A DNA stretch of 64,000 nucleotides from assembly GCA_963662285.2 (NCBI GenBank), contig CAXXMV010000001.1, forward strand, positions 256,001 to 320,000, read 5' to 3'. The notes under the pieces were generated by a model, which was not told the DNA's origin, did no database searches, and saw only the letters and a program-made list of their open reading frames with translations. How positions within the stretch are numbered: position 1 is the first letter of the stretch; every line of letters starts with the position of its first letter. Position numbers and translations under genes: made by a program. This stretch comes from a bacterium (lineage in GTDB: Bacteria > Hinthialibacterota > Hinthialibacteria > Hinthialibacterales > Hinthialibacteraceae). Positions 1,950-21,867 of this stretch are shown in pieces.

Positions 1950-3530
1950 TTGGGGATAAGGAGAAATATCAAAAGAATGAAGAAACGGTCATTGAGTTTC
2001 CTGGTTGAAATATTGTTTGTTTTGGTATTCGTTGGAATAAATCAAATCAATTCATCTGCTCAATCGTGGCCATTCCGCAATGGGGATTCTTCCAATACGA
2101 GGAATTTCCAAACAGTAAAGCCTCTGCTTGTGGGAGATAAGATAACAGCAAAGAAACTTCTTCTTCCATGGGAAATTCAAGGTTTTTTATTATCCGGTGA
2201 TGTAGATGGAACGGGCCGAATCAGCCTCGTATCGTCATTTCAATCTCCACCTTCCGTTGCGATCTATGATCCCATCTCGCTCGCATCGCGTTTAATTCCG
2301 ATTAGTGAGAATCCTTATACGAATGATTACGTATCTCCATACAATCTACTGGATACGGACGGGGAGCCTGGATTGGAAATCCTGACAGTTATCACGCCTA
2401 ATTCCGTTCCATCTTATGGGGAAGGAGTTCCGACTCTATACCAAGTGGTTTCAGGGAAGCAAAATCTCGTACTCAACCAATTCATGGGCATGGTGGGTGA
2501 AGATCAAAATGGAGACGGTGTATGGAGCGGCCGGGAAAGCCCTGAACTTATGTTTGTGGATGAAAAAGGAAAGGTAAAAATCCTTGCGCATATCGATGCA
2601 GGGCATGAAGATTACAAACCTCGGGCCATAAATATTTATGATGTTGAGTCGGGAAAAATTGACGCTCAATTTCACATGGCGACTCCACCAACAGGCATCT
2701 CATTCTTTCAAGATCCTTCATTAGGCAAATATATCTTTACGGCTCCCCTGACACCCGATAATTGGATTCGAGTCAATGGTGAAAAGATAATTGATTCTGA
2801 AGGTAATTACATTAATGTGAGCGAGGACCTGGATGGGCTTACTGTCTCAGACAAGGAAGCCTATGACGTCTGCTTGAAATTAGAAACGGATTCGGAGCAA
2901 GCATATTCACTAGATCTTCAGTGGTATTTAAAGCGGGGCGAATATATGTCGGGCTCATCATTGATTTCCCGGACAGAGGATAATCGCCTTGTTGTTATAT
3001 CCTGGGATACAATGATCCGCTCCTACGATGCGATTTCACCTGGAGGAATTCATGTTTACGACCTCAAAACCGGTGAAATCGTTAAGGAGTTTTATTTAGG
3101 TGAAGAAATCTCTTTTAGAGATGTGTTAAAGATAAATAATTCAAACACTCTTTATGGATTCCATCTTGAAGAAAAATCAGTCACTAAATTCGACTTAGAT
3201 GAAGAAGGACCAAGCAAAACAATTGATTTTAACGATGAACCAACAGTAACGCTTTCCGCATTAGGGGTAGCTGATATGGATGGAGACGGCTCAATTGAAA
3301 TATTGATTGCAAAAAAGAAACCGGAAGAAACCGTAATGTTCGTCTATGATGAAAACCTTGTTGAAAAAGACTCTTTAAACGTTCCTCCCTTCAATCAATA
3401 CTGCTTCGCCGATGCAAACCTGGACGGACTCCCTGAGATTTACATGCTCGATCAAATTAATAATAAAGAACTTACGGTTGTTGAATATGAATCTTCGTCT
3501 TTCGTCAGTGATTACATAAAATACGATTAA
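1950..3530 (+). CDS. Secreted FG-GAP-repeat protein with C-terminal sorting-like motif (likely start ATG 1977)
   Basis: Signal peptide MKKRSLSFLVEILFVLVFVG..SSA; GDVDGTG, DTDGEPGLEI, ADMDGDGSIEI, ADANLDGLPEI loops; ends SFVSDYIKYD. Confidence 0.75.
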   Translation: MGIRRNIKRMKKRSLSFLVEILFVLVFVGINQINSSAQSWPFRNGDSSNTRNFQTVKPLLVGDKITAKKLLLPWEIQGFLLSGDVDGTGRISLVSSFQSPPSVAIYDPISLASRLIPISENPYTNDYVSPYNLLDTDGEPGLEILTVITPNSVPSYGEGVPTLYQVVSGKQNLVLNQFMGMVGEDQNGDGVWSGRESPELMFVDEKGKVKILAHIDAGHEDYKPRAINIYDVESGKIDAQFHMATPPTGISFFQDPSLGKYIFTAPLTPDNWIRVNGEKIIDSEGNYINVSEDLDGLTVSDKEAYDVCLKLETDSEQAYSLDLQWYLKRGEYMSGSSLISRTEDNRLVVISWDTMIRSYDAISPGGIHVYDLKTGEIVKEFYLGEEISFRDVLKINNSNTLYGFHLEEKSVTKFDLDEEGPSKTIDFNDEPTVTLSALGVADMDGDGSIEILIAKKKPEETVMFVYDENLVEKDSLNVPPFNQYCFADANLDGLPEIYMLDQINNKELTVVEYESSSFVSDYIKYD

Positions 3531-6600: not shown

Positions 6601-7034
6601 GTACGATTAACATGCTGGATTCGACAACAAATGAGGTTCTACATGTATTTTCTGATCCAGAAAAAGTACATAATTCTACAATTTTATCACCTGATGGTAC
6701 AAGAATATTAACAATAGACGGTAAATATAAAGATGCCATAACAGATGAAATTTTATTCTCTATTCCTGCTTTTTCATCTGCTTCTTTTTATCCAAAAGGT
6801 GAAGCATTCTTAACTAGTCACACTATTATGGCAAAATTATGGAATATGTATAACGGAGAGGAACTCCTTACTTATACAGGGTTTTACTCAACGGGTAATG
6901 CTCTTGCATTTTCTCAAGATGGAAAATTATTAGCAACTTCAGATAAGCGTAGGATTGTTCTTTGGGAGTTAAATGGATGGATTCAAGAAATCACACCTCC
7001 AGATACAAAAATAGATGATTGGGCAATATATTAA
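3669..7034 (+). CDS. Secreted multi-WD40-repeat protein (several propellers; likely start ATG 3681)
   Basis: Many GH..V.SVAFSPDG..ILTGS.D.TAKLWD repeats; N-terminal hydrophobic segment; GGAG before ATG 3681; ends PPD-TKIDDWAIY. Confidence 0.92.
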   Translation: MEKKMCNRILVLLCVFLNCSYSSEYYSYGPPVKFPSSSHNDSINSVNYSPDGNFVITGSEDKTAILWEISTGRVIHTFSGHKERINSVAFSPDGQTVFTGSDDTIKKWDVLTGKEIQTLELNKWIQTFSPQGSQFLTGRYSENLEIWDSLSNSKIASFDASLDGFGHTIYTAAFLPNEKQIAFVSENSHGGIVRFWNIDTNSEICTFYPASYAHNETITDIAFSSDSKKIITGSDDQTAKILDIETNEIGNIFMREKLTLIGHSEPITSVGLSPDGKYALTGSQHYAKLWDAITGEELHTFHGYEFKSIIFGKNGNSVLVGNENTAFLLDLDSKKKIQVFGADAYSEVISPSGEFIVSFGNYSTRLWEIETGSVIRIFSGHNDGVYSAAFSPDGNHILTGSYDDTAKLWDVTSGTEIRTFTGHNDDIRSVAFSPDGNKILTGSWDKTAKLWDVSSGNELQSFSGHTDGITSVDFSPDGKQIATGSWDKTAKLWDLATGKEIFTFQGHNKYIDSVEFSPDGNYLLTASGDRSAKLWDISTGIELLTISGCDGKATFSPDGEKILTQDGKLWKASTGCKFGSRLGSYPYGGEFSPDGNYIIATSQYQVLLWDISTYGNEQKSIGGNNSYIYTVAYSSDGKRVATGGYDNRAIVWDVEAGSVLCEYSDKGYINSLSFSPDSEQLLIGSEDGTVKLLDAITGKELYRYQDIDDPVNSVAFSPDGTKVLVGSDDNTAIMWDVNTGLRLHTFSGHEGTVHSVIFSPDSNYILTGSEDGTAKLWDIVSGLNIKTFIGHESGVTSVAFSPDRKQIVTGSWDDTAKLWDVITGNVLKTFSGHKSNVNSVAFSPNGKYILTGSWDYTAKLWDINTGMELQEFSGHTAEIKSVAFSPDGNSVLTGSRDFSAKLWDVNTGEELKTFSGQKLEISLLSFSNDSSILFSSDFSTAKLWDVNTGGELYTFNNFHNNEGMSLDGSRILQKTPEGTINMLDSTTNEVLHVFSDPEKVHNSTILSPDGTRILTIDGKYKDAITDEILFSIPAFSSASFYPKGEAFLTSHTIMAKLWNMYNGEELLTYTGFYSTGNALAFSQDGKLLATSDKRRIVLWELNGWIQEITPPDTKIDDWAIY

Positions 7035-7292
7035 TATACAACTAAAAACAGAATATTAATCGAAATCTAATTAGATTTAGCGTCATATCTCACATTTTTT
7101 CTCCAATCAAATATTAATGGATTAATCATTTATCCATCAAACCGGCCCAATTTAAAAATTTAGGCATTATTTTTATTTTTTTTTTGACCGATTTTGATTT
7201 GGTTGTCGATATAAACATCAAGGTGGTTTGTTTTGTGTGGCGCATCTTGTTGTTTGATTGTATCAACATTCTGAGAAATATGGAGTTAGGTC

Positions 7293-8429
7293 ATGAAAAA
7301 GAGCATATTTGTGTTTGGTTTGGTTTTGGTCTGCGGTATGAATTTTGCTTTTAGCGAGTCGGCATCGTTCTTTCGCGGTGAGAGTGATGGCAGCGATGGG
7401 GAATTGATTGTCACTGAAGACACTTCTGTTCCATTGCCCGAAGACGGCGTGTTGAATTATACAAGGATCGAGGTACAAGAAGGCGCAACTCTCACATTCA
7501 CTCCAAACGCAAAAAACACCGGTGTTGTTCTCCTTTCCCAGGATGATGTGATTATTAATGGCGTTATCAGTGTTTCTGCAATCAGTTCAGAAACACCTGG
7601 ACCCGGCGGATTTCATGGACCGTATCAAGTCGGTGAACATTGGATGCCAAGCGATGGTCTTTTTGGTTTTAAAGGAAAAAGTTCATTTGCTAGTAATCAA
7701 TCATATAAGTATATTGATCCATACTTGATTTCACTTGTAGGTGGCTCTGGCTATAATACTACACATATCACAACACTGTACTATTCTGGTGAATATGACA
7801 ATTATAGTGGGGGCGGCAGTCTGATAATCCAAGCACTAGACAAAATTGTTCTGACTGGATCAACACAGTCTTATCCAGCTAGAAATCATTATAATCATCC
7901 TAGTGTTGATAATTATCGCGGTACACTCCGATTGATAGCAGACATTGTCGAAGGAAACGGATCGATATATGCAGCATATGCCAGAATTGAAGCCAACGAA
8001 ATATCGACAGGATTAAACGTTGACACAAAACCGTGGCTTTCTGATGATTCAACCGCCTATACAACAGGAAAACCCACATTGCCCATCTACATCAAAAACC
8101 GTCCGGAAATCTGGATTGAAAGCGTGTCTGGTAATTCGGTTTCAGCCGGTAAAAAGTCTCAATGGGGCGATATTGCGGATATCACGTTGCCTACCGACAA
8201 CAACCAGGTCGAGATAAACGTCAGAGCCAAGAACCTGCAAGCGCAGTTTATTGATGACACTACCGCCTACGTGCGGATCATGCCTCAGGATGAAGATTAT
8301 TACGCCGAACAGGTCACTTTGACCGATGCCGGAAACGGTGAAGCCACCGGTTCGGTTACGGTTGAACTGGATATCAGCAAGCAATACCTGTTTGCCGCAT
8401 ACATACTCGCCACTCATCTGACAGAGTAG
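7293..8429 (+). CDS. Secreted Gly-rich beta-strand protein with C-terminal Ig-like region
   Basis: Signal peptide MKKSIFVFGLVLVCGMNFAFS; SDGSDG..LPEDGVLNYT.I.V..GATLTF, PGPGGFHG and GGSG/SGGG motifs; first gene of a three-gene surface-protein operon. Confidence 0.65.
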   Translation: MKKSIFVFGLVLVCGMNFAFSESASFFRGESDGSDGELIVTEDTSVPLPEDGVLNYTRIEVQEGATLTFTPNAKNTGVVLLSQDDVIINGVISVSAISSETPGPGGFHGPYQVGEHWMPSDGLFGFKGKSSFASNQSYKYIDPYLISLVGGSGYNTTHITTLYYSGEYDNYSGGGSLIIQALDKIVLTGSTQSYPARNHYNHPSVDNYRGTLRLIADIVEGNGSIYAAYARIEANEISTGLNVDTKPWLSDDSTAYTTGKPTLPIYIKNRPEIWIESVSGNSVSAGKKSQWGDIADITLPTDNNQVEINVRAKNLQAQFIDDTTAYVRIMPQDEDYYAEQVTLTDAGNGEATGSVTVELDISKQYLFAAYILATHLTE

Positions 8430-8455
8430 ACGGCCCGCTGAATAAAAACAGCAGA

Positions 8456-11400
8456 TTGCTAGAGGAGGCGGCAGTGTCTGAGTATATGCGGAAATATACA
8501 TGGTTAGAGCTTGCAGTTTATTGGCTGCTGCTCGTGATGCCCGTACCGGTTCCCGCTCAGGAAACCGGTTCTGAATATCTGATTCCAGAAGATTCAGTAT
8601 TCGATCCAAATACGGAATACGGTCCATTCTGGAGTACAAACAGGGTCAGTACGATTTTCTCCGATCATACGGATACCATTGAGCAAGATGTAACATTCGG
8701 TCCCTTCTGGGGGAGCAACCGAATTGGAGTGATCTTTTCCGATCATGCAGATACCATTGCGCAAGACATTACATTTGGCCCATTCTGGGGGAATAACCGG
8801 ATCGGCATATCTTTCTCCGACACCACCGATGAGATTTCGGAAGACATCGACTTTGGCCCGTTTTGGGGAAACAACCGCGTCAGTCTGACTTTCTCGGATG
8901 TCACCGATACGATCACGGAAGACCTTGAGTTCGGCCCGTTTTGGGGAAACAACCGCGTCAGTCTGACTTTCTCGGATGTCACCGATACGATCACGGAAGA
9001 CCTTGAGTTCGGCCCCTTCTGGGGGAGTAACCGAATATCGTTTAAATTTCAAGACCAACTCCCACCAGAGACAGATATATTAAGACCGGTTTCTGGAACT
9101 ATAATTTACAATCCAAAATATCGATTTGAATGGATCGGGAATGATGATACGACTCCCACTGTCGATCTACAGTATTCCTATCGTCTTGATGACCAAAATT
9201 GGAGTGATTTTTCATTAAATACGTCAACAAATTCAAATGATCTAACTGAAGGTGAACACACCTTCGAGGTAAAAGCCAAAGATCTTGATAATAAGGAAGA
9301 TCCGACTCCGGCAATCGTTGATTTTAACATAGACCTAAGTGCGCCAATCATCACCAATATCGAGATCAATCCTCTTCAAACAAATTGTACGATTACTTTT
9401 AGTACAGATGAACCATCAAAAGCATTAATACAATATGGCATTGATTCAAACACGAACCTTTTAATATCTTCAACCAATGAATGGAAAACAGAGCATACGA
9501 TAACGATCTCAGGATTGGAGATGGTAACGGCTTATACTTACACCATCGAAATCTGGGATCAAGGAAATCATAGAAACATAACTCAAGAAGGAATATTTGA
9601 AACAAAAGGCGCACCGGATCTTGTGGTTACGGGCGTAATGTTTGATACAGATATGGTCTGGCAAGAAGGAACGCTTAGTCTTGAATGGACAATACTTAAT
9701 CAAGGTGTTGAAACTGCCGGAGGGGAAAGACTCGATGCAATCTGTCTTTCTAATGACAAAAATATTGGAGAGGATGTATTAATTGCGGAAGTGAGTCAAG
9801 TTGATTCTATCGCTCCAGGAGAAACAAAAACATTCTCATCAAATATTAATATATCAAATGATGAATTAAATGATGGTATCTATTTTCTTGTCGTGACAAC
9901 AGATGTGTCTAACAAAATATTTGAAGGAGGCAATGAAAGCAATAATAGTTTTATCAATTCAAATTACATAATTCTTAGAGAATACGAAGCAATTATTACA
10001 AGGTGCGATGTAGATATCGCTCCAGCAGGCTCTCCTGTAACTCTCCATGGTGAAGCGTTAAGATTATCAGATGGTGAACTTGCTCCGAACGTACCAGTTC
10101 AAGTCGCTATATCCGTTAGGGGGATTTCTCGTGTTTCAGAAACCATAACGGACACGAATGGAGAGTTCGAACTTGTTTTCACTCCTCTTTCAATGGAAGC
10201 AGGCCGATATCAAGCATTTGCCAAACACCCCTTCGATCTAAATAAAAACGAATCAGAAGTAGAGTTTTCGCTCGTTGGGATGAAGGCAAGTCCAAACCAA
10301 GTGCAATATAATCTCATAACAGGGATCCCTCTCTCAGCCACTTTAGAACTTTCAAACCTGGGTGATGTTCCATTACAAAATATCCAAAAAGAAATTCGTG
10401 CAACGTCTAATGGGATAAGTTTAGATATTCAATTTCCTGCAGAATTGAATGGTTTAGAAATTACATCTATTCCTTTTGTCATTGAGGCAATGGATGATGT
10501 AACTGAAAATTCAACAATTAATATATCGCTTACGAGCATTGAAGGCGCTACTGAATTAGTTGAAATTGAAACACATGTTACTCCCTCTCAGCCAAAATTA
10601 GTAAACTATCCGGGCGTTTTGAATATAGGGATGATTCGAGGCAGTCAAAAATTTGTTGAATGTGAACTTACTAATAGTGGTGGGGCTCCTGCTGAAAATG
10701 TCCGTATTGAATTACCTCAATCAAATTTACAAGATTGGTTAAAGTTAGCTTCTCCAGATACTTTCTCAATGATCGAACCTGGTGAAACCAAAAAGATTAT
10801 CGTAGCGCTTCGTCCACCCGATGACATGATACTTGGACCATATCAAGGAGAGATTATTGTTCATTATGATCTAAATAAATGGATTCAAATACCTTTTAAC
10901 TTTATCTCGGTTTCTGATAGCAAAGGAGATTTGAGAGTCAATGTTGTGGATGAATACACGGTTTTTGGTGAAAGTGCTCCACGCGTGATTGATGCTACAG
11001 TTACTTTGATGAATCCAGCTGATAGCACAACAATATTGGCAACCAGTAATTCGAATGGTACAGCATTAATAGAGGATGTAACAGAAGCTTTCTATTATAT
11101 AGATGTTGAGGCTGATAGGCACTATTCCATAACAAGATTGCCACTCGAACTTTCTGCGGGTATTGTTAATGAAGCAACGGTATTCTTGAATCGTGAACTC
11201 ATAACATACCGTTTCAATGTCGAACCAGCAGAGATTGAAGATAAATACAATATATCCATAGAAACAGTCTTTGAAACAAACGTACTTGCCCCCGTAGTCA
11301 CAATAGATCCACCCATAGGTAGGATTATACTTTTCGATGATCAACCTACAACGATCAATTTTAATATAACCAATCACGGACTGATAGATGCTGAGAATAC

Positions 11401-12235
11401 TTACTTGAATTTCCCCGTAGATTCATATTTTACAGTTACACCTCTGGTTGAAGATATTGGTGTAATACCTGCTGGGCAAACAATAACAGTTCCTGTGCGT
11501 GTGGAAAAAAGTCATGAGACGAGTTTAAATCTAGCATCACAGAAAAGATTGTCTTCAATTGATAGAATTGATGAAGATATTTTTGATAAAGGTCCATGCG
11601 AAAAATCTATATCAGGTAAAGTGGTTTATGATTATGTTTGTGTTGGAACAACATGGGTGGAAATCCCTATACCGATTTATGTTTTTGAAATGCTCGAAGA
11701 AATAATCAAAGCTGGTATTTGTACTGCAGATCTTACAATATGTGTTGGAGCATTATCAACACCTGGATCTCAATTTGTTGCTTTACCATTTTGTATAAGA
11801 GGTACTGAATGTTTGTGTAAGTATATGAGTGCTATGACACAAGAATATTCATGTTGTTGGTGCCATATCATCGGATTAAGTACAATTGTTAATGGCAAGA
11901 AAACTAAAATTAATGGCTGGGAAGAAGACCTTTCTCATCCAACAACCGATCCAGGTGAGAAAGCATTAGATTTTATAAAAGTAACTGAAGCGGTAGAATG
12001 CATAAATGATGCCATAAACAAAAATCCTCCTACACCCTCTCAGAAAGAAAAGGAGAGGGAAAAGGGAAATAGAATAAATCGTAGTGGAAGCAGAATTGGC
12101 AGTGGTGGTTCTGTCTATTACTCAAATACATATTTTAGACAAAGTTATGTTCAAGGACCACATAACGGAAAAGGCGGTTATGTATGGCAATCAAAATGCG
12201 GTCCAAAACCCAAATCAACTGACTCACAGAATTGA
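8456..12235 (+). CDS. Large secreted protein: N-terminal 26-aa repeats, FN3/Ig-like, CARDB and carboxypeptidase-regulatory-like domains, Cys-rich C-terminus (likely start GTG 8474)
   Basis: GGAGG before GTG 8474; signal peptide ending VPVPA; YSYRLD..WS..L.EG.HTFEVKA (Ig/Y_Y_Y-like); APDLVVT..WTILNQG..E.NESNN (CARDB); many Cys in the last ~215 aa. Confidence 0.75.
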   Translation: MLEEAAVSEYMRKYTWLELAVYWLLLVMPVPVPAQETGSEYLIPEDSVFDPNTEYGPFWSTNRVSTIFSDHTDTIEQDVTFGPFWGSNRIGVIFSDHADTIAQDITFGPFWGNNRIGISFSDTTDEISEDIDFGPFWGNNRVSLTFSDVTDTITEDLEFGPFWGNNRVSLTFSDVTDTITEDLEFGPFWGSNRISFKFQDQLPPETDILRPVSGTIIYNPKYRFEWIGNDDTTPTVDLQYSYRLDDQNWSDFSLNTSTNSNDLTEGEHTFEVKAKDLDNKEDPTPAIVDFNIDLSAPIITNIEINPLQTNCTITFSTDEPSKALIQYGIDSNTNLLISSTNEWKTEHTITISGLEMVTAYTYTIEIWDQGNHRNITQEGIFETKGAPDLVVTGVMFDTDMVWQEGTLSLEWTILNQGVETAGGERLDAICLSNDKNIGEDVLIAEVSQVDSIAPGETKTFSSNINISNDELNDGIYFLVVTTDVSNKIFEGGNESNNSFINSNYIILREYEAIITRCDVDIAPAGSPVTLHGEALRLSDGELAPNVPVQVAISVRGISRVSETITDTNGEFELVFTPLSMEAGRYQAFAKHPFDLNKNESEVEFSLVGMKASPNQVQYNLITGIPLSATLELSNLGDVPLQNIQKEIRATSNGISLDIQFPAELNGLEITSIPFVIEAMDDVTENSTINISLTSIEGATELVEIETHVTPSQPKLVNYPGVLNIGMIRGSQKFVECELTNSGGAPAENVRIELPQSNLQDWLKLASPDTFSMIEPGETKKIIVALRPPDDMILGPYQGEIIVHYDLNKWIQIPFNFISVSDSKGDLRVNVVDEYTVFGESAPRVIDATVTLMNPADSTTILATSNSNGTALIEDVTEAFYYIDVEADRHYSITRLPLELSAGIVNEATVFLNRELITYRFNVEPAEIEDKYNISIETVFETNVLAPVVTIDPPIGRIILFDDQPTTINFNITNHGLIDAENTYLNFPVDSYFTVTPLVEDIGVIPAGQTITVPVRVEKSHETSLNLASQKRLSSIDRIDEDIFDKGPCEKSISGKVVYDYVCVGTTWVEIPIPIYVFEMLEEIIKAGICTADLTICVGALSTPGSQFVALPFCIRGTECLCKYMSAMTQEYSCCWCHIIGLSTIVNGKKTKINGWEEDLSHPTTDPGEKALDFIKVTEAVECINDAINKNPPTPSQKEKEREKGNRINRSGSRIGSGGSVYYSNTYFRQSYVQGPHNGKGGYVWQSKCGPKPKSTDSQN
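8615..9050 (+). repeat. Intragenic tandem repeat, 78 bp/26 aa, six GPFW units
   Basis: Unit FGPFWGNNRVSLTFSDVTDTITEDLE; copies 8855-8932 and 8933-9010 are identical at DNA level. Confidence 0.92.
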
Positions 12236-14766
12236 ATTTCTTTGATTTATTAGGAATTAGAGGAACTAAAATGAGAAAATTATGTATATTTTTAATATTA
12301 TTTGCGTCTCTTGAGTTCTTATTATACGATTCGATAATTGCGCAGGACGATGATCTCAAAGAAGGGATTTGCGCAAAAATACGGTTGCGAATCGAACAAG
12401 AGGCAGTAATGACAAAGTCCGCATTCAAAGCAACACTAGAAATTTTCAATAACGCGCCTTATCCAATTACAAATATCTTTACTGACTTGTCAATTGATGA
12501 TGCAACTGGAGAGGAAAGTACTTACAAATTTCTTATTAGCCCAAATCATAATAAAAATATACAAACTATTGATAGTTCCGGTGTAATTAATCCAAGCGAA
12601 AATGCTATTATAGAGTGGTTGATAATTCCGAATAAAGAGGCAGCGATTAATGGCCCTGCTAGATATAATATAAGCGGTATCCTTGAATATTATGATCAAG
12701 ACGTATTAGTATCAATTCCTCTTTTACCAGCAGCGATTTGGGTTTTTCCATCTGCAGAATTAGATGTTCATTATTTTCAAGAAAAATATGTCTATTCAGA
12801 CGATCCTTTTACAGAGGATATAATTGAGCCATCCACTCCTTTTTCTCTCGGTCTTTTAATCAATAATGTAGGTAAGGGGAATGCAAACAATGTAAGAATA
12901 TTTTCCTCACAACCGAAGATAATAGATAATGAACGAGGATTAATTATTGACTTTAAAATAATTGATACGCAAGTTGGTTTGGAGCCAGTATCACCTTCTT
13001 TGACAGTCGATTTTGGCGATATTTTGGCAGGCAAGTCTGCTGTTGCTCGGTGGAGAATGACTTCAACATTATCCGGAGAATTTACCGAATATCAGGCGAA
13101 AGTTGAACATGAAGACTATTTAGGAGAACCACAGATCACCAGCATAGATATACACGAATTAATCCATGTAATGCGAATGGATACGCCTGAGTCAGATTTA
13201 TTGCAAGATTATTTAGTGAATGATGTCACTAGTGATAATTTACCAGATATAATTTATTCAAGTAATGGCGCAGTGTATCCGGTAAATGTTGCAAGCAATA
13301 TACTGATAAACGAGTTAAAAAATCAATTATTTTCCGAGATATCTGTAGAATCAACCGTAACGGATGGCTGGATTTATCTTAAGATAGATACACCTGGAAA
13401 ATCTTATAAACTTACTAGGGTAATTCGCTCAGATGGTAAAGAAATCTTGTTAAGTGATAATGCCTGGGTTACTAATCGCGTCATACGTTTAAACGGACAA
13501 ACACCTTATCAAGAAAATCTTGCACATATTGTTGATTACAACAGTACTGGTTCTTATGAACTTTATTTCGAAAATATTGAAATAGTAGGACCAACACCAA
13601 CGCCAACAATTACTCCAACACCAACATTAACCCAAACACCTTTACCAAAACCAGCAATAAATATTTTTGACAGCGCATCTGAAAAAAGTGTTGTCATTGA
13701 ATGGGATATGCCGAACGTTTTGAAGGATGGTGAACATTTTGTTGATTCACATATATATGTCACAATTAATGATGCAACGGAAACTGTATTTTTGGGAAAT
13801 ACTCGTAATGGTTATGACACATCGTTTGAATGGTTTAAGAATAATCCACTGCTTCACGATTCATTTAGAGAAGGTCCAGATTTTTCACAAAATTACTCTT
13901 ATTCATTTTTTTCAATAATCGAAAGTATTGATGATTATAATAATTCTAAAATGAAACATGAAGGCCCCTTTAATACAATTGCAAGATATAAGTTTTCAAA
14001 CCAATATGAAATAGAGGATGTTGATTATGATGATCCTGAAAATCGCTCTATTGTGATTAGTTGGGATATTAATCCAAATTTATTTAATGGTTACATAATA
14101 GATAATTATGCAGTATATGTAAAATCGAATACTCAAAATATGCTCGAATTATTAGGGTATTCTGGAGATAGCAGAACAAACTATTTTATATGGGATACGA
14201 AAAATAAATATGTAATAAATAAATTCAAGGATGGCCCTCAATTTTATAGTATTTATCTCTTTTATGTAAAACCAATTTTTACGAAAGATCCACAACCAGA
14301 ATTTGGACCATATGCAAGTGAAACAAGTATTAAAGTTGAACCAATACTAATAATCACTGATTCAATCGAGTCATACGATGATATATCCGGCAAAGTCTAT
14401 ATTGAAGATGGCAGTGATAAGGAATTAATTTTGAGATGGAACTTCAACGAAAACGAATTAGACTTTGAAAATGTTCAAGATTATCACATTTATGTATCAG
14501 AAAACAACGAAAACTCTTACCAATATTTAGGAAGACCAAACATCAAAGAAAATAGAAAGAATGGATATGTGATATGGAATAAAGTATCTTCATCATATAT
14601 TAGCAAGGAATATATTAACGGCCCTCAATTTAATAAAAAATATTTCTTTGAGTTGTATCCTATGACAAAAAATGGTCAAATTCCTTATTATGGCCCATAT
14701 AAAGCAAACGGATCAATCACATATAATGAAAAATCAACGGATGTAAAAAATTGGGAAATATATTAA
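12232..14766 (+). CDS. Large secreted protein with PT linker, three C-terminal ~100-aa repeat domains and C-terminal sorting-like motif (likely start ATG 12271)
   Basis: AGGA + ATG 12271 gives signal peptide MRKLCIFLILFASLEFLL; CAKIRLRIEQEAVMTKSAF domain; PTPTPTITPTPT linker; three S.VI.W..DYHIYV..LG..W..GPQF..Y.F repeats; ends KS-TDVKNWEIY. Confidence 0.75.
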   Translation: MNFFDLLGIRGTKMRKLCIFLILFASLEFLLYDSIIAQDDDLKEGICAKIRLRIEQEAVMTKSAFKATLEIFNNAPYPITNIFTDLSIDDATGEESTYKFLISPNHNKNIQTIDSSGVINPSENAIIEWLIIPNKEAAINGPARYNISGILEYYDQDVLVSIPLLPAAIWVFPSAELDVHYFQEKYVYSDDPFTEDIIEPSTPFSLGLLINNVGKGNANNVRIFSSQPKIIDNERGLIIDFKIIDTQVGLEPVSPSLTVDFGDILAGKSAVARWRMTSTLSGEFTEYQAKVEHEDYLGEPQITSIDIHELIHVMRMDTPESDLLQDYLVNDVTSDNLPDIIYSSNGAVYPVNVASNILINELKNQLFSEISVESTVTDGWIYLKIDTPGKSYKLTRVIRSDGKEILLSDNAWVTNRVIRLNGQTPYQENLAHIVDYNSTGSYELYFENIEIVGPTPTPTITPTPTLTQTPLPKPAINIFDSASEKSVVIEWDMPNVLKDGEHFVDSHIYVTINDATETVFLGNTRNGYDTSFEWFKNNPLLHDSFREGPDFSQNYSYSFFSIIESIDDYNNSKMKHEGPFNTIARYKFSNQYEIEDVDYDDPENRSIVISWDINPNLFNGYIIDNYAVYVKSNTQNMLELLGYSGDSRTNYFIWDTKNKYVINKFKDGPQFYSIYLFYVKPIFTKDPQPEFGPYASETSIKVEPILIITDSIESYDDISGKVYIEDGSDKELILRWNFNENELDFENVQDYHIYVSENNENSYQYLGRPNIKENRKNGYVIWNKVSSSYISKEYINGPQFNKKYFFELYPMTKNGQIPYYGPYKANGSITYNEKSTDVKNWEIY

Positions 14767-15044
14767 AATATTGAAGCGTGAGAAAACTTCCGATGGAACT
14801 CACATGTGTCTTTTGTATATCTTAATCCAAATTCGTTATCATCACTCCAGAATGAAAAGAAAATTAGTTATAAATCAACTTCGCCTTATATCGCAATAGA
14901 GAGAACGCTATTCGCATAGTTCGATTCGATTCACGTTAGCAATTAACATACAATAAAAAAATAATTTCCATCGGAAATTTACTCAAACCTCCAAGGCATA
15001 TCTCATTCGTAAAGTATTTATAACAAAACTTTTACGAAAAGGAA

Positions 15045-16232
15045 ATGTCACCGCAGCCTGTTTTCCCCCGATTTAATGTCCGCTCGGATTTCTTCTCACA
15101 AATTCTTGATCCGTTTGGTATGATCGATTTCGCATCCGTTTATTCACGGCACAATCAAATAGTCGATTTCATTCTCTTTTCCATACTCTTTATTGGAATC
15201 AGCCGTGTAACACTTACCAAACACTTTAATGGAGCCGGAGGAAAATTGCTGTCTGTTGGAACCGGTATCGTTCTTTCCCTGGCATTAGTGATTATGCAAG
15301 ATCAAATGGGATTTTCACTACTAACCTTTGCCCCGTTTGCCGTATTCCTTCTTTGCATTCTTATGATCTTGATGCTCTTTGTTGTACTCAACTCATTTGG
15401 TATGCAAACCAAGATATCTTTATCGATCTCGTATATTGCAATATACACCTGTCTTCGTGCGTTTGTACCATCATTCTTCGATTGGCTAACCTGGAACGTT
15501 TCATTTGTCGCAGGGATTATGACTATCGCACTAATCATCTCCATTGGAATCATCTTATTTGCGATCATGCCCAAATCCAACCAATCGACATCGTTTGGAG
15601 ATCAGGCAATGAAAATCGCACCAGAACTTTTCCCGAAGATGCAAGAAGCATCTAATTTGATCGATTCATCCAACAATCTCAGCAACCAGATCGATATTTC
15701 AGAACGTGATGTTTTCAAACGCTTAAAGCAAATTCGAAAATTTCTACCCACATTAATGCAGACCGAAGGAGGCCAGGCAGAACTCTTGCAAGCCATACGG
15801 GAGATTAAATTAGAGAACAACGAGATCGTTTCCAAATTAAGCAAGATGAGCGAAATAAACAAAGCCATCGAGTCAGAAGACGTCCAAGTTTTCCAAAAGT
15901 TATTCGGTATGATGAATAAAGTACCCAATAATCAGATGTCAAAAGCGGTCAAGGCATTAAAAGGAGCAAAGCAACGCCTTAATTTGGAATCCGTCATCGC
16001 GAGTTTAGAAAAACGAATCGATGAGATAACAAATAAATTTTCGAAACTCATCGACATCTTGTTCAATGCCGTCCAAAACCGCGATATCAACACCGCCAAA
16101 AGAGCGATTGATGCCGCCATCCAAATGGAAAAAACTCTGCAGCGCATCATCAAGCCTCTGGAAGCGATCGAAAGTAGCCTTAAAGCCTCATACAATAGAG
16201 CCATCAGAATGACGACACCTAAAAAACGCTAA
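15045..16232 (+). CDS. Membrane protein, about 5 N-terminal TM helices plus long C-terminal coiled coil
   Basis: Hydrophobic stretches aa ~40-175, then an amphipathic heptad-rich region; convergent with the cdc6-like gene. Confidence 0.7.
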   Translation: MSPQPVFPRFNVRSDFFSQILDPFGMIDFASVYSRHNQIVDFILFSILFIGISRVTLTKHFNGAGGKLLSVGTGIVLSLALVIMQDQMGFSLLTFAPFAVFLLCILMILMLFVVLNSFGMQTKISLSISYIAIYTCLRAFVPSFFDWLTWNVSFVAGIMTIALIISIGIILFAIMPKSNQSTSFGDQAMKIAPELFPKMQEASNLIDSSNNLSNQIDISERDVFKRLKQIRKFLPTLMQTEGGQAELLQAIREIKLENNEIVSKLSKMSEINKAIESEDVQVFQKLFGMMNKVPNNQMSKAVKALKGAKQRLNLESVIASLEKRIDEITNKFSKLIDILFNAVQNRDINTAKRAIDAAIQMEKTLQRIIKPLEAIESSLKASYNRAIRMTTPKKR

Positions 16233-16351
16233 TCATCATGTTGTTCTGGATCAAAATCCTGCATAAGATGCTCTTGTTGTTCACGCCATATATCCGTAAT
16301 TGTAAAATCTCCTCTCAGCAAAAAAGTGCGATGTTCTTGTTTTTCTTTCAT
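16229..16351 (-). CDS. Possible 40-aa small ORF downstream of the cdc6-like gene
   Basis: Read by hand: MKEKQEHRTFLLRGDFTITDIWREQQEHLMQDFDPEQHDD*; fills the gap exactly; below ORF-track cutoff. Confidence 0.35.
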   Translation of the reverse strand: MKEKQEHRTFLLRGDFTITDIWREQQEHLMQDFDPEQHDD

Positions 16352-16390
16352 TCCGATTCAATTGAGATTGGTATATAAGAACCTTTCGAT

Positions 16391-17653
16391 TTAAGAAAGC
16401 CCGATCAACCGCTTCAAACGATCAAGAATTCTTTCGGTCAAATCTTGATCATTCGAATTATAAATCTCCCGGCTTTTGCCATATCTCCCATGGCTCACAA
16501 CACGTGTGTTTATGAGCGAGTACAAATCAAATGAGGAAATAATATCGGAGAAGCGCCTCTGGCTGATTGGTCGAATTTTGATGGTATTCGCCAAACGTTG
16601 ATATTGCTCGAAAACCTCTCCTGTATGAACGCGATTATTGTTTTTAAGCAAAAGCGAATAACAAGCCGCAAGGGAAATTTTCTGCTGTAAGGGAAGTGAC
16701 TCTGCTAGAGACATCGCCTTTTCATATTCAAGTGCTTTTTCCGCCTCTTCAACCTCACTTACAGTCAGATTGCCCCCTGCTCGTTCGGCTAAATACGATG
16801 ACTTCATCAAAAGTTCAATCGCTTTCCTTGCATCCCCGGAATCTTTTGACGACACTGCGGCAATACGAGCGATAGCGGCTTCATCAACTCGGCTTTGATC
16901 GAGCGCTTTGGCTATCCGTAATTCCAAAATCTGACGAATTTCAAGCGCATGATATGGATTAAAGATAATATCGTTTTTCTTCAAACAGGATTTTGTGCGG
17001 GCATCTAACGAATTCTCCCAATTCAGTCGATTTGTCGAGAAGATATAGATCAACCGGACTCGAACCTGACGCGGAAGACTTTTAACGATGAAGGTCATAA
17101 ACACATCACGATCTACTGATATAGAATCGATCTCATCAAGAAAAAGGATCAATGTTCCTTGTCGCTCATTCAAATAATCGCGGATGCGAGACTGCATAAG
17201 TTCAATGGGAATCCCTTTGAAATACGAGCGCCCCTGCCCAATGCTGATCGCAATCCGGTTCAAACCAGCAAATGCTGTAGTGGATTGAGACAAATCGACA
17301 TAATAATAATCAAGTGGAATCGATTCACGATCAGCGATAAATTTTATAGTTTCCAAGAGAGTGGTAATGGATACTGTTTTTCCTGATCCTGTCACTCCGA
17401 TTGTCAAAAGATGGCTAGGTGTCCGATTATTCAGACAAGGACTGAGATGTTCAGATAATGCTTTGAGTTCGCACTCTCTTACATCACGCGAGAAGATTTC
17501 AGTTAACACCTTAGACCGTTCATCGTCAGGGAGAGCCTCATCATCGAGATAATCCGCATTTAGGATTAACGGTTTTCGATCCTTCGGCAACCGACAAGCG
17601 TTTATAAACGATTCAACACGGTTTTCTTTTCCATGAGCAATTTCCTCGGACAT
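16391..17653 (-). CDS. cdc6: Cdc6/Orc1-family AAA+ ATPase with C-terminal winged helix
   Basis: RECELKAL..L.P.L; Walker A GVTGSGKT; Walker B LFLDEID; FNPY...I.QIL.LR; GDARKAIELL; WH region SQRRFSDIISSFDLYSLINTRVVSHGRYGKSREI. Confidence 0.88.
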   Translation of the reverse strand: MSEEIAHGKENRVESFINACRLPKDRKPLILNADYLDDEALPDDERSKVLTEIFSRDVRECELKALSEHLSPCLNNRTPSHLLTIGVTGSGKTVSITTLLETIKFIADRESIPLDYYYVDLSQSTTAFAGLNRIAISIGQGRSYFKGIPIELMQSRIRDYLNERQGTLILFLDEIDSISVDRDVFMTFIVKSLPRQVRVRLIYIFSTNRLNWENSLDARTKSCLKKNDIIFNPYHALEIRQILELRIAKALDQSRVDEAAIARIAAVSSKDSGDARKAIELLMKSSYLAERAGGNLTVSEVEEAEKALEYEKAMSLAESLPLQQKISLAACYSLLLKNNNRVHTGEVFEQYQRLANTIKIRPISQRRFSDIISSFDLYSLINTRVVSHGRYGKSREIYNSNDQDLTERILDRLKRLIGLS

Positions 17654-17710
17654 GAAATAGAAGAAATAATGGGAATATATAAATGTTATGCAATTTAAGA
17701 GAAGATTAAA

Positions 17711-19009
17711 TTATAACCATAATAAAATATCCTCATCGGAATATTGACTTTTCCTTTCTTTAAAAATTGGTTTTTCGATTAATTCATTTCGAGACTTAAC
17801 TTCACTAAAACGAGGAAGAAACCATTTGATATAGTAGGAATAATTAATTTCAGGATTAAGGATCTTAATAGAAGCCTTTGTTACTTTACCTTCTTTATCT
17901 TCTTCAAAGTCTAAAGGAGCATATCTTTTTTCAATTTTTTCTCTTTCATCTGGTAATAGTTGTCTATTCTTTTTAACATTAAATTCAGGATTTAGCATAA
18001 AATAACCATCCATGCATTCGATACTTAGCTCAACTAAATCAGTCTTGTTCACAATTTTAATATTTGTCATTTCATATGGATCTGTATAATTAAGATAAAA
18101 AGGTGGTTTGTTAGAACGGTCACGTGACTTATTGATCCTTGCTATATCATCGAAAAAATCGCTATAAAGGAAAAATAATTTTTCACATGATTCTTCAAGC
18201 TTAATCGTTAATGGACTGTCATCCCTTGTTAATGGTTGATCGAGTTTAAAGGCATATTTGACTAAATCTGGACCGTTGATAACATTTTTAATCTCAACTT
18301 TTTGTATTTTTGCATGTGGAAGAAAAGAAAAGTTATTTAATTGCAAGTTATAAAAACATGAAGGTCGTTGATCGCCTCTTCCTGTGAACAACTTATCAAA
18401 AGCATTTAAAGGTTCAGTATCTGTATAAATAACATATTTTCTAAAAATCTTCACTGAGCCATCTGGATATATTTTCCATAGATAAGAAATACATGAAAAA
18501 CAGCCGTGCGCGTTCCCGTAAGCAATACTCGATTCCGGTATTATATCTTTACCAATTATACCAATTTCTTTAACACACTCTTCAAGGATATATCTTCCAT
18601 TTTTATTCTTTTTAGTATTTATAAAACGTACATTGAAGGGTCGTTGATATTTAGTATCTAAATCTATTGTTATTTTTTCAACTTTATTTATATATGTATA
18701 AATTCGATTAAATTTTGAATTATTTCGGCTAAGATTAGTATCATAAATTTTCCATATATCATTATCTAAATTATCTAATTCCAAATCACTGATGTCAGGA
18801 TTTTTGGATTTGTATAATTCTTTCACCTTTTCTGTTTTGCATTGGGTTATTAACCAATTTATGAAATTATCCCATGTAATATTTCCTTTCTTTTCAAAAA
18901 TTTCTACAGAAAAATCTAATAGCATCAATTCTAAGAAATCTAATTTTTTTATAAAGCCAGAAGATTCCAATATTAATTTTGCATCAAAAGTGCTCGACTT
19001 GTTATTCAT
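17711..19009 (-). CDS. Hypothetical protein, 432 aa, very AT-rich
   Basis: Long ORF with GGAG RBS; no recognisable motif; co-oriented upstream of cdc6. Confidence 0.65.
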   Translation of the reverse strand: MNNKSSTFDAKLILESSGFIKKLDFLELMLLDFSVEIFEKKGNITWDNFINWLITQCKTEKVKELYKSKNPDISDLELDNLDNDIWKIYDTNLSRNNSKFNRIYTYINKVEKITIDLDTKYQRPFNVRFINTKKNKNGRYILEECVKEIGIIGKDIIPESSIAYGNAHGCFSCISYLWKIYPDGSVKIFRKYVIYTDTEPLNAFDKLFTGRGDQRPSCFYNLQLNNFSFLPHAKIQKVEIKNVINGPDLVKYAFKLDQPLTRDDSPLTIKLEESCEKLFFLYSDFFDDIARINKSRDRSNKPPFYLNYTDPYEMTNIKIVNKTDLVELSIECMDGYFMLNPEFNVKKNRQLLPDEREKIEKRYAPLDFEEDKEGKVTKASIKILNPEINYSYYIKWFLPRFSEVKSRNELIEKPIFKERKSQYSDEDILLWL

Positions 19010-19050
19010 AATTTATTATCTCCTATAAAACCCCGCTCCAATTATTCGAC

Positions 19051-19079
19051 TGAACTTCCTTTGAACTTCACGTGAACTT
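19051..19079. promoter_or_regulatory. Three TGAACTT direct repeats at 11-bp period in a divergent intergenic region
   Basis: TGAACTT at 19051, 19062 and 19073. Confidence 0.55.
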
Positions 19080-19307
19080 AAAATTAATAATATCAATACG
19101 TTATATTGAAAAAAAACGAAAAGATGTTTCACTATAATACAACAGAAAACAAAAGAATGTACAGAGCACTAACGAAAAGGAAAAAAGGAAAATGAGAACT
19201 TTTAATAACTCCTCTCAAGACATAGAAAAATACACGGTTTTCATTCTAGCAACCACAGCAACAAGCATGATCGAAATCGAATTTTGGTTGGAACAGATAA
19301 ATTTTCT

Positions 19308-20698
19308 GCCTCTTCAAAAAAATCTGTGGGTGAAATTTGGTTCTGGTAAATCGCCAAGTGTATGATATAAGGCGATTTCCAGCGCTTTGTAGGTTCGAAA
19401 ACCGTACGCCATTTTGGTAGTCACTTTGGCCTTGTTGTTTAAGCCTTCCACCACTCCAGAAGAAAACTCCTTTTTCGCCCGAAACCAGTTCAAAATCAGT
19501 TCGCGATGGTTGCGCAGCATCTTGGCCACTTTCTTCATTGGTTCGATTCGCGAGCGCATGGTTTTAGTACACCACTGATCCATGAAGCGTCCAGCCCACC
19601 ATGCTGATTTATATTCCCAGAAAAATTGAAATTCCTCTTTGAGAAGATAACTTCTCACCGTGCGCAGATTATATCGAACCACGTTGGCTAATTTATCGAC
19701 CTGCTTGACTGTCAAATTATCCGGGCGTTTCAGAAACCACCAGCGACTTCCTTTTAATACCGGTTCTAATCCCTTGGCCTTCAATTCACGGGATTCTCCA
19801 GCGCGGACTTGATCTATGGCTTTGTTCATATGAGCCATGATGTGAAACCGATCCAATACATTCAGCGCGCTTTTGGCTTTTTTGCGAATGACTTTGAGAT
19901 AAGCTTTCCACATATCACTGCACACAAATTCCAATTTTTTTGAACGCTCTTCCCCGAACCATCTGAAGAATTTCAACAGTGTTTTGATCTTTCTTTTTTC
20001 CCCGATCCACAGCAGCCGTTTGCAATTCTCATTGATTTGATATACCACTGTCACATACTGATGGCCGCCGCCCCATTGCATTTCATCGATTCCAATGGCG
20101 GTGATTCCTTCCAGGTTCACATGCTGGCGGCCCCATTCTACCGCCCGTTCAACCGAATGAAAAACATTGTACCAACTTGTTTGAAATGCTTCCGCCACTT
20201 GGCTCCAACTCATCCGCTTGGCCCAGCTCGCCAAGAACCATTGATAGATATGCGTTAATTCATGTTTACCATCGGCCCAAGGTACCTTTTCAACTTTCAC
20301 TCCACAGCGGTGACAATTCACGCGGCGCATGGCATAGATCAGGAATACGGTTAATCCCCATATCGGGATAAACTCAAATCGGCGCGCATCTAATCTGTCA
20401 TAACCTGATCCTTTTTCTCCGCAGCATGAACATATCGGGCGGCTTTTGACATGAGCACGGACTTTTACCTCTATGGATGTTTTACCATTCCATTCACCAA
20501 ATTTGCTAGAAGCATATACATACCCCTTGATTTTATGAACACGATTGAGGATTCTAATGACATCCATCCGGTTTCCTCCTGGTTGATGATTTTTCGCTGA
20601 TTTCATTCTTTCAGGATAAGAGACCGGATGTCTTTTTTATACCTCTACTATTCGAAGTATTTTTGCTATCATTCACCCACAGATTTCTTTATAGAACC
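19308..20698 (-). mobile_element. Complete ISL3-family insertion sequence, 1391 bp, 8-bp TSD AATTTTCT
   Basis: IRs GGTTCTATAAAGAAATCTGTGGGTGAA / GCCTCTTCAAAAAAATCTGTGGGTGAA; AATTTTCT at 19300-19307 and 20699-20706. Confidence 0.93.
19314..20606 (-). CDS. ISL3 family DDE transposase
   Basis: Zn finger CSCCG..CHRCG; IGIDE; CSDMWKAY; LDRFHI; SSGVVEGLNNKAK...AYGFR. Confidence 0.95.
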   Translation of the reverse strand: MKSAKNHQPGGNRMDVIRILNRVHKIKGYVYASSKFGEWNGKTSIEVKVRAHVKSRPICSCCGEKGSGYDRLDARRFEFIPIWGLTVFLIYAMRRVNCHRCGVKVEKVPWADGKHELTHIYQWFLASWAKRMSWSQVAEAFQTSWYNVFHSVERAVEWGRQHVNLEGITAIGIDEMQWGGGHQYVTVVYQINENCKRLLWIGEKRKIKTLLKFFRWFGEERSKKLEFVCSDMWKAYLKVIRKKAKSALNVLDRFHIMAHMNKAIDQVRAGESRELKAKGLEPVLKGSRWWFLKRPDNLTVKQVDKLANVVRYNLRTVRSYLLKEEFQFFWEYKSAWWAGRFMDQWCTKTMRSRIEPMKKVAKMLRNHRELILNWFRAKKEFSSGVVEGLNNKAKVTTKMAYGFRTYKALEIALYHTLGDLPEPNFTHRFF

Positions 20699-20771
20699 AA
20701 TTTTCTTATTCAAACCTTAACAAGAAAACAAAAAAGCATGAAATAAAAAAGACTGAAAAGGAGAAAAAGCG

Positions 20772-21134
20772 ATGACACATAAACAACTAATCAGCGAAAT
20801 GAACGACGTGATTGAGGCAATCATTTGGTTTATCACAGGCGGATTAATCGACGGTCGCGATTATGAGGGAGCAGTCACAAGTCTTTGTTTGAAATTTGCC
20901 TGTCTTAACGAAGCTTTCTGGCGCCGAAAAGTACGATTATTCAAGTTCATCCTTGAATGTGTTAATGAGATTGCAGAAAAAAAACAATTGAAAAATATAA
21001 ACAAAGAACAAGTTGTGTTATCGCTTTTCAAAAAAGAATTCAATCGCGATGCAGAAAATTTGCCATTGTGGGTGATAGACATTTATATTGGTAAATTAAT
21101 AAAAGAACAACAAAGGGAGAATAAAAATGGCTGA
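20772..21134 (+). CDS. Hypothetical protein
   Basis: AAGGAG RBS; overlaps the start of the next gene. Confidence 0.65.
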   Translation: MTHKQLISEMNDVIEAIIWFITGGLIDGRDYEGAVTSLCLKFACLNEAFWRRKVRLFKFILECVNEIAEKKQLKNINKEQVVLSLFKKEFNRDAENLPLWVIDIYIGKLIKEQQRENKNG

Positions 21135-21867
21135 TTCAAACAACTTTAACTATTATAAATTAGGTAAAAAGGTCTTTGACGAAAGCGTGGATAAGATAGC
21201 CAATACGCTTCAGAAAAAGAACAATAACTACGTCGATGATGAAGAGAATAAAGAGTTAATTAAGATTCTATCAGAAAAGAATACGGAAGCCATTTTGGAA
21301 CTAATCAAAATGTCCGTTCCTCAATTAGAACTCGACGAGAAATACAAGACTGAAGAGGACCTGTGCCAATCTATTGAAAAATTATCTACAATTCTTGTAA
21401 AAACAATGTCTGGGAATTTCAATTCTTTAGCCAATATGAAAGAAAACGTTCAGAAAGCATCTAGAAAAGATATTTTTCCAACTTCACACAAATCTTTACA
21501 ACAGATGTTTGAAGAAGGGCACGAAATCAAGGATGAAAAAACAAGGATAAATATAGGTGAGACAGAAAATGAAAAACTAGAAATTGATGTGATGACGTGT
21601 GAAATTTCAAAACGACTCACGCTCCGAACGAAAAAAATCTTTCACCAACTAGTAGAGGAAATCAAAACAATGTCTAAGCGTGAATTCGAGGAATTCGTTA
21701 CTTCAAAAAATTCCTGCGGAAAAAACATTCTCTTAGATAAGGGAATCGTGACAGAAAAGTGGGTGGCAAATTACACTATGACGCAAATCAGAAGAACCGC
21801 CAAGGATTATCTTAATGGATTAGGTGGCATACGAATAATTGACGATAATCGTGGTGGTGATCGTTGA
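21127..21867 (+). CDS. Hypothetical protein
   Basis: GGGAG RBS; 246-aa ORF, charged and helical. Confidence 0.65.
   Translation: MADSNNFNYYKLGKKVFDESVDKIANTLQKKNNNYVDDEENKELIKILSEKNTEAILELIKMSVPQLELDEKYKTEEDLCQSIEKLSTILVKTMSGNFNSLANMKENVQKASRKDIFPTSHKSLQQMFEEGHEIKDEKTRINIGETENEKLEIDVMTCEISKRLTLRTKKIFHQLVEEIKTMSKREFEEFVTSKNSCGKNILLDKGIVTEKWVANYTMTQIRRTAKDYLNGLGGIRIIDDNRGGDR

Follow-up and report, generated by a model that had tools for sequence, protein, structure and literature searches.

Inverted origin-recognition-box-like repeats beside an Orc1/Cdc6-family gene and a membrane-protein gene in a Hinthialibacterota genome

The Orc1/Cdc6 protein and its membrane-protein partner

The 64,000-nucleotide (nt) stretch analysed here, referred to as the window, is C1:256001-320000 (contig C1) of a 7.29-Mb genome in 8 contigs (G000) from the bacterial phylum Hinthialibacterota. 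It contains a gene of the Orc1/Cdc6 family (orc1, 16391-17653, minus strand), a convergent gene encoding a membrane protein here called TMCC (15045-16232, plus strand) and, 5' of the latter, two inverted boxes that resemble archaeal origin recognition boxes (ORBs) and enclose an AT-rich spacer. Starting replication with Orc1/Cdc6 proteins and ORBs is characteristic of archaea and, by descent, of eukaryotes; bacteria and their plasmids are generally considered to rely on DnaA, Rep proteins or rolling-circle enzymes. The host of the window is a bacterium with one DnaA gene and one DnaB gene. An inverted pair of ORB-like boxes around an AT-rich spacer at bacterial orc1/TMCC loci is newly seen here.

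The 420-residue orc1 product was assigned to the AAA+ and winged-helix proteins of the Orc1/Cdc6 family by profile, domain and PDB-sequence matches and by its place in a tree. It matches the NCBIfam model TIGR02928 (orc1/cdc6 family) with 242.2 bits (cut-off 181.3), and the equivalog models of particular archaeal Orc1 types are not reached, NF001625 scoring 220 against a cut-off of 501. Pfam recognises a Cdc6_C winged helix (PF09079, 1.5e-21), a Cdc6_lid (PF22703, 1e-12) and AAA_22 and AAA domains, and the order is canonical, with an AAA+ core, a lid and then directly the C-terminal winged helix. Among all PDB sequences the best match is Aeropyrum pernix ORC1 (2v1u, E 9.9e-47), which aligns unbroken over residues 59-408 and thereby leaves no inactive restriction-endonuclease (REase) insert between the AAA+ core and the winged helix; Sulfolobus solfataricus Orc1-1 (2qby_A) matches at 1e-38, and Orc1-3, Pyrobaculum Cdc6 and eukaryotic Cdc6/Orc1 score lower. 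PADLOC and PHROGs returned nothing specific, the best PADLOC match being a weak one to mad8 (2e-4). Invariant across an alignment of 19 clade members are Walker A (G86..K92 T93), Walker B (D173 E174), N208 (sensor 1), R219 (the box VII arginine, or arginine finger), the GDAR sensor-2 motif (G273-R276) and the wing G389-R390-Y391-G392..R395. The same members share a clade-specific N-terminal extension of ~58 residues with an invariant block, lying outside the part covered by the archaeal structures. Judged from its sequence, the product is a canonical Orc1/Cdc6 protein whose ATPase and DNA-reading motifs are intact.

Carriers of Orc1 are patchily distributed, comprising 5 of the 35 genomes of the phylum and, beyond Hinthialibacterota, named Desulfobacterota that include the cultured naphthalene-degrading strain NaphS2. 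A quick IQ-TREE analysis of 48 rows combined 25 rows of the bacterial clade, most of them labelled bacterial by similarity to named ones, with 9 named euryarchaeal Orc1 proteins, 12 unnamed sequences and 2 haloarchaeal plasmid proteins as outgroup, and held no Thermoproteota, Asgard or DPANN sequences. The bacterial rows grouped in a single clade (Shimodaira-Hasegawa-like approximate likelihood-ratio test, SH-aLRT, 100), separated from the euryarchaeal Orc1 sampled by a long stem (3.24 changes per column); two subclades within this clade match the two gene arrangements described below. The long stem and the separate clade therefore argue against a recent transfer. A preliminary description of the locus, made from the window alone, had proposed an archaeal-type Orc1/Cdc6 protein with intact AAA+ and winged-helix motifs that was acquired across domains: the family assignment and the intact motifs are confirmed by the model score above the cut-off, the Pfam domains, the near full-length archaeal PDB matches and the invariance within the clade, whereas the cross-domain acquisition holds in a deep sense only. 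A second complete Orc1, 55% identical, is encoded on the 1.64-Mb contig C8 of the same genome. A decayed third Orc1 fragment, limited to the winged-helix part (57% identical) and with stop codons (TAG and TAA) in its reading frame, was observed at G000:C2:1506786-1507016.

In an AlphaFold2 (AF2) model with a mean predicted local distance difference test score (pLDDT) of 69.7, the 395-residue partner protein TMCC is predicted to have five membrane helices (residues 37-174), followed, after a disordered linker (176-220), by a C-terminal helical domain (220-388). It has no family in Pfam, NCBIfam, PADLOC or PHROG, Foldseek with the model found no PDB fold at E<=0.001, the ESM Atlas gave hypothetical clusters only, and a word-based homologue search with TMCC alone returned only itself. 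A profile of eight TMCCs, by contrast with the single sequence, retrieved 1205 representative clusters at E<=1e-3, of which 290 reached E<=1e-30, from 1.84 billion searched. The resemblance to DPANN-archaeal membrane proteins suggested in the preliminary description was not borne out, an organism name being available for 3 of the 20 clusters looked up and all three being bacterial; one language-model match (0.91), to a cluster with some Nanobdellota members, serves as a lead only.

The pairing of the two genes, by contrast with that resemblance, was upheld by a neighbourhood analysis of nine loci with several kb of flank, namely the window, the C8 copy, one locus in genome G021, two in G016, one in G014, and those of a Desulfatiglandales metagenome-assembled genome (MAG), NaphS2 and a Desulfarculaceae MAG. 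A TMCC homologue lies near orc1 in eight of the nine, across two phyla and in differing gene orders: it adjoins orc1 in six loci (the short G016 locus L010 counted), is 2-6 kb off in three, and the two genes may be convergent, divergent or separated. Because the gene order differs between loci and the pairing nevertheless recurs, a functional linkage between TMCC and Orc1 is suggested. The loci are less independent than these counts imply, since the copies in G016 belong to a single element family and those in G000 are paralogues. On two short metagenome contigs, where the flank extends for 1.8-4.3 kb, no TMCC was present. TMCC diverges faster than Orc1 (37% versus 55% identity between the G000 copies). 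Complex prediction with Orc1 and TMCC residues 215-395 gave a score of 0.00, which counts neither for nor against binding. In the window, the convergent genes are separated by a 158-nt gap between their stop codons (16233-16390), in which a repeat search detected three 16-nt direct repeats (GATGYTCTTGTTKTTC-like; 16231-16246, 16267-16282 and 16330-16345).

Inverted boxes and their likeness to archaeal origins

The two boxes of the window, each with a matrix score of 20.9 bits, form an inverted pair whose left arm (14777-14800, minus strand) was recovered as an inverted repeat and whose right arm (14964-14987, plus strand) ends 57 nt before the TMCC start codon. Between them lies a 163-nt AT-rich spacer (14801-14963), regarded as a candidate unwinding element. 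The boxes are ~24 nt long with the consensus GGTTCCACAGGAAATCTTCTCACA, and the core of the window pair is GTTCCAYMGGAAAT. Repeat searches revealed box pairs beside orc1/TMCC in the window, the C8 copy, G016, G014, the Desulfatiglandales MAG and NaphS2; all 3 metagenome contigs that hold the orc1 5' flank also carry a pair, and boxes occur beside orc1 or TMCC in every lineage but one. G021 has a single box, of 22.3 bits. The placement of the boxes differs between loci. In the C8 copy, as in the window, the pair is immediately 5' of TMCC (type A); in G016 the boxes fill the divergent gap between TMCC and orc1; in G014 and the Desulfobacterota they lie just 5' of orc1, the type B loci having them 60-130 nt before that gene. 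The 18-nt type B box is absent from the window even with <=3 mismatches, the window boxes being a variant with an ATC centre.

The specificity of the boxes was assessed by scanning G000 on both strands, 14.6 million positions in all, with a matrix derived from ten boxes, every one of them from another genome. The four best-scoring positions were the two box pairs at the two Orc1 modules (28.9, 22.6, 20.9 and 20.9 bits), followed by a match of 18.7 bits. In the five other carrier genomes, all 15 matches to a 16-nt box with <=1 mismatch were at Orc1/TMCC loci, the match on contig C47 being the TMCC half of an element copy broken at the contig end; with two mismatches, matches were at background level, the same as with a reversed-pattern control. 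The arms are separated by 146-166 nt in five distinct loci and by ~110 and 72 nt in G016. Across loci, spacer GC is 0.17-0.40 versus 0.35-0.48 in the flanks, and the lowest 40-nt windows reach 0.05-0.125 in four loci (L021, L024, L027 and L028). As a separate observation, an identical 24-nt sequence (GATTTCAAAGGAGATTTTCCCACG), a weak match to the matrix, occurs at no fewer than 14 G000 sites, for example C8:559666, C6:654529 and C2:1486845; it probably represents the terminus of some other repeat or insertion sequence.

Published ORB sequences to which the boxes can be compared include a euryarchaeal consensus, GTTCCAGTGGAAAC-AAA----GGGGG, as quoted from PMC1868953, and, in Table 2 of PMC4153887, an Archaea-wide consensus, CTTCCAGTGGAAACGAAAGGGGT; the same source gives the individual box of Ca. 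M. alvus as GTTCCACTGGAAAT, from which the bacterial core GTTCCACAGGAAAT differs at one position. The box core closely resembles, at the level of its bases, the published archaeal origin recognition box. The boxes are more like mini-ORBs, since the archaeal 3' G-string is not conserved and the 3' half is CTTCTCAC-like. At least two inverted boxes with the ORB dyad core lie beside the initiator gene or that of its partner, the arrangement by which an ORB-type origin is recognised. The features shared with archaeal oriC1-type origins (Sulfolobus, Aeropyrum, Pyrococcus and Haloferax) are an orc1-1-like initiator with AAA+, lid and winged helix, inverted boxes with the dyad core GTTCCA..GGAAA around a spacer that is clearly AT-rich in four loci and modestly so in the window, and a box unit that adjoins the initiator gene or, here, also the gene of its partner TMCC. 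In contrast to those origins, the units described here reside in a bacterial host with DnaA and DnaB and without MCM, their Orc1 has the conserved ~58-residue N-terminal extension and a conserved membrane partner, and a very long branch sets the bacterial Orc1 clade off from the archaeal Orc1 proteins sampled.

Probable mobile islands and the possible roles of the module

In the relative G016 the module is part of a discrete repeated element, with four copies that are 88-93% identical over ~23-27 kb and whose flanks turn unrelated at sharp points. The element encodes, in order, a pilin-like protein, a FecR-like protein, an extracytoplasmic function (ECF) sigma factor, two FG-GAP proteins, Replic_Relax (PF13814, 9e-20), a HerA-like ATPase, an ArdC-like anti-restriction protein, CobT/CobS-like proteins, three small conserved proteins (257 residues with zinc ribbons, 151 and 147 residues), Orc1 and TMCC. 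Replic_Relax is also present in the Desulfatiglandales MAG and was not found in G000 (tblastn at 1e-6). The two G000 copies have diverged but are collinear, with protein identities of 30-94%, and share the layout of an AT-rich ~430-residue gene, orc1 and a convergent TMCC, after which come a 104-residue gene, a 157-169-residue gene, a HerA-like ATPase (634-685 residues, 69% identical between copies), an 83-residue gene, a CobS-like MoxR ATPase (94%) and a CobT-like VWA protein (79%). On C1, ~17 kb of other genes intervene between TMCC and the HerA group, so that the HerA-like gene is 17 kb from the module, as compared with 4 kb on C8 and 10 kb in G016. At island edges, a XerC-like tyrosine recombinase fused to an IS91 (Y2) transposase (NF033538, 330 bits) is encoded at L021:1499-3061 (G016:C4) and G000:C8:1244418-1245521; the fusion lies just past the TMCC end in two G016 copies, outside the nucleotide-similar part, and G021 has a related gene.

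Together, orc1, TMCC and the inverted ORB-like boxes that enclose the AT-rich spacer are read as an initiator-plus-origin module of large integrative mobile elements, a family present in Hinthialibacterota and Desulfobacterota, with a probability of about one half for this reading as a whole. It is favoured because the boxes are in cis, recur across phyla, are unique within the genome, have the shape of an archaeal origin and are attached to an intact initiator in a mobile island. The preliminary description had left the choice between the replicator of an unusual mobile element and an ATPase repurposed for regulation or defence; the replicator option gains most support from the ORB-like boxes, the AT-rich spacer and the multi-copy, sharp-ended island in a relative. 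Elements with their own Orc1-type initiator are found among archaeal plasmids, viruses and integrated elements, and 378 haloarchaeal-type plasmid records match Orc1 with identity <30%; those described here differ in being bacterial and in carrying an ECF sigma factor, FecR, ArdC and Replic_Relax. No description of a canonical Orc1 with ORBs on a bacterial element was found in the literature listings and passages covered, and a plasmid-initiator survey refers to Orc1 just as a distant winged-helix relative.

Under this initiator-plus-origin reading, Orc1 monomers would occupy the two boxes in head-to-head orientation, in the manner of archaeal Orc1-1 at oriC, and with ATP would distort or open the spacer, from which replication of the excised or resident element would start. 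Since the host has no MCM, the helicase might be the host DnaB or an unrecognised protein of the element, for example one of the conserved proteins. TMCC may work alongside Orc1 at the membrane, whether for tethering, for control or for hand-over to the HerA/VirB4-like DNA-translocating ATPase, and this is the weakest step of the scheme. Put forward tentatively, and as rather less probable than not, is the fuller proposal that bacterial integrative elements replicate from a genuine archaeal-type origin, at which Orc1 on inverted ORBs would recruit a bacterial or unrecognised helicase without MCM and TMCC would link the complex at the origin with the membrane or with a Ced/VirB4-like translocase, making a hybrid of archaeal initiation and a bacterial replisome. 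The data suggest that some bacterial mobile elements may start DNA replication in the archaeal way. If true, a conserved Orc1-ORB unit on bacterial mobile elements of at least two phyla would mean that initiation of this kind can pass from one domain to another and be maintained there, and would raise the question of which helicase Orc1 would load in an MCM-free cell. A large unannotated membrane-protein family (the 1205 clusters above) also gains its first context, that of archaeal-type replication proteins.

Several findings weigh against an origin. Among the island genes, none was recognisable as encoding a helicase, primase or polymerase; an MCM AAA+ search of G000 gave generic AAA+ noise only (best 29 bits, the same model ringing in E. 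coli), and none was found at E<=1e-8 in the five other carrier genomes. Replic_Relax could replicate the G016 element by another route. The bacterial boxes do not keep the archaeal G-string (GGGG), and the window spacer is modestly AT-rich, with a GC of 0.307 and a lowest 40-nt window of 0.225 versus 0.353 in the 3-kb flank. In the Desulfarculaceae MAG the sole TMCC is 35 kb from orc1 and only a weak single box (14.6 bits) was found. No close relative of Orc1 occurs in 72,556 plasmid records (best <30%, in haloarchaea) or in 50,697 phage records, and IMG/VR holds one distant relative (27% identity). In an independent assembly of two runs from a single sample, window positions 8986-19336 are covered with 0 differences by a 10,351-nt contig; its depths of 7.0 and 12.5 equal those of its neighbours, and excision joints or excised forms were not seen among the contigs of that one sample.

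A transcriptional switch, in which Orc1 on the boxes at the TMCC promoter (type A) or at its own promoter (type B) would control island genes, is a possible though fairly unlikely alternative. Non-initiator archaeal Orc1 paralogues act as regulators, the right box lies close to the TMCC start codon with a promoter-like match (14936-14965) abutting it, and the type B boxes stand 60-130 nt before orc1; the lack of a recognised helicase partner and a read depth equal to that of the flanks also fit a switch. For a plain operator, on the other hand, there would be no need of a conserved AT-rich spacer of 146-166 nt between inverted boxes or of complete conservation of the ATPase motifs, and both roles coexist at archaeal origins, so that regulation would be compatible with origin function.

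Rather improbable is a transfer or tethering site, at which box-bound Orc1 and TMCC would bring element DNA to the membrane for export or import by a HerA/VirB4/CedD-like ATPase, or for partition. It would account for the linkage of TMCC in eight of nine loci and for the HerA-like ATPase conserved in the islands, whose best named relatives are CedD (an archaeal DNA-translocating ATPase; 75 bits against a cut-off of 600), HerA and VirB4, all far below cut-offs, and Replic_Relax and ArdC are typical of transferable elements. Against this, the HerA-like gene shares no operon with orc1, from which it is separated by 4-35 kb, and the annotated stretches contain no recognisable genes for a pilus or for type IV secretion.

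An anti-invader system in which Orc1 senses or localises on foreign DNA has also been weighed and appears improbable. Mobile neighbourhoods coupling HerA/FtsK with Orc/CDC6 ATPases have been described as 'capture' systems by Aravind's group (PMC10853773), and further ORC/Cdc6-clade ATPases in bacterial immunity are reported in PMC12839542 and a 2026 preprint. The loci described here share with such systems, and with BrxC, SspC and HINPO, a bacterial Orc/Cdc6-clade ATPase in a mobile neighbourhood with a HerA/FtsK-type ATPase, and differ from the capture systems in lacking the inactive REase insert that defines them and any fused effector, in the canonical domain order of an Orc1 above the TIGR02928 cut-off and in the presence of boxes in cis. 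A PD-(D/E)XK (Cas4/Dna2-like) nuclease gene directly before the HerA-like gene in one carrier, the Desulfarculaceae MAG (L066:15348-16091, G043), NUDIX and nucleoside deoxyribosyltransferase genes nearby in two loci and the fast evolution of the AT-rich neighbour gene would suit defence; in G000 the slot of that nuclease is held by the 157-169-residue protein, which has no known family. The PADLOC match is, however, weak, and boxes that occur in cis across phyla and nowhere else in the genome point to a self site rather than an invader sensor.

An assembly chimera or archaeal contamination, to which a metagenome-type assembly with 3.5% estimated contamination and the lower GC of the first 22 kb of the window might point, is very unlikely in view of the spanning contig at the depth of its flanks (its sample may be the genome's own source and is not independent support), an orc1 GC of 0.43 versus 0.44 for the genome, the second copy on C8 and the relatives in 4 other genomes of the phylum and in Desulfobacterota, the cultured strain included, and the possibility of a chimera raised in the preliminary description is thus set aside.

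Neighbouring genes and island boundaries

Upstream of orc1 by 57 nt and on the same strand lies the AT-rich gene of the window copy (17711-19009, minus strand; GC 0.28), encoding a 432-residue protein with no Pfam, NCBIfam, PADLOC or PHROG family and a best ESM Atlas score of 0.83, giving no usable lead; it resembles its C8 counterpart over 108 N-terminal residues only (30%). At the start of the window (1-3530), matches to G016 define an ECF sigma factor (ending at 331, minus strand) and two FG-GAP proteins (412-1854, minus; 1950-3530, plus), 34-39% identical to genes of the G016 element and in the same order. The stretch C1:254352-259530 contains homologues of the sigma, FecR, pilin-like and FG-GAP genes, and the first 3530 nt of the window are therefore placed in the same island. 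Between these shared genes and the boxes, four large low-GC genes (3669-14766, plus strand) are without counterparts in the C8 copy or the G016 element, weak repeat matches excepted, and are probable cargo. Two of the window proteins in this region have distinctive sequence features, a 1259-residue one (8456-12235) beginning with ~6 tandem repeats of ~30 residues each that contain FGPFWG.NR, and an 844-residue one (12232-14766) ending in ..NWEIY.

Near position 22000 GC steps from ~0.35 (1-22000) to ~0.47-0.50, which is likely the island edge, and two low-GC open reading frames without family (20772-21134 and 21127-21867) precede the step. No tRNA genes were found at island ends in 13 loci, nor any terminal direct repeats >9 nt at the ends of the G016 element. 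A common chromosomal site for the island in G000 and G021 was considered and dropped, the shared flank gene being only 40% identical over 141 residues and one that we take to be a member of a multi-copy domain family.

An AF2 model of the 257-residue zinc-ribbon protein of type B loci had a mean pLDDT of 50.7, too poor for a structure search. In the Desulfatiglandales MAG, two proteins of 285-289 residues consist of MCM N-terminal and OB domains only (MCM_OB, 7e-24, a model with matches in 4 archaeal control genomes and in 0 bacterial ones). The copies, at L064:5485-6342 (G041:C1:39677-40063) and G041:C1:8092623-8093009, each have an additional TMCC paralogue ~3 kb away; the region is repeated and contains neither Orc1 nor an ORB-like box. 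Outside the module, an ISL3 insertion sequence of 1393 bp (19308-20700, minus strand; transposase 294 bits on NF033550) abuts the 432-residue gene and is present in 11 genome copies of 99.6-100% identity, with a read depth of 51-86 versus 7-14.

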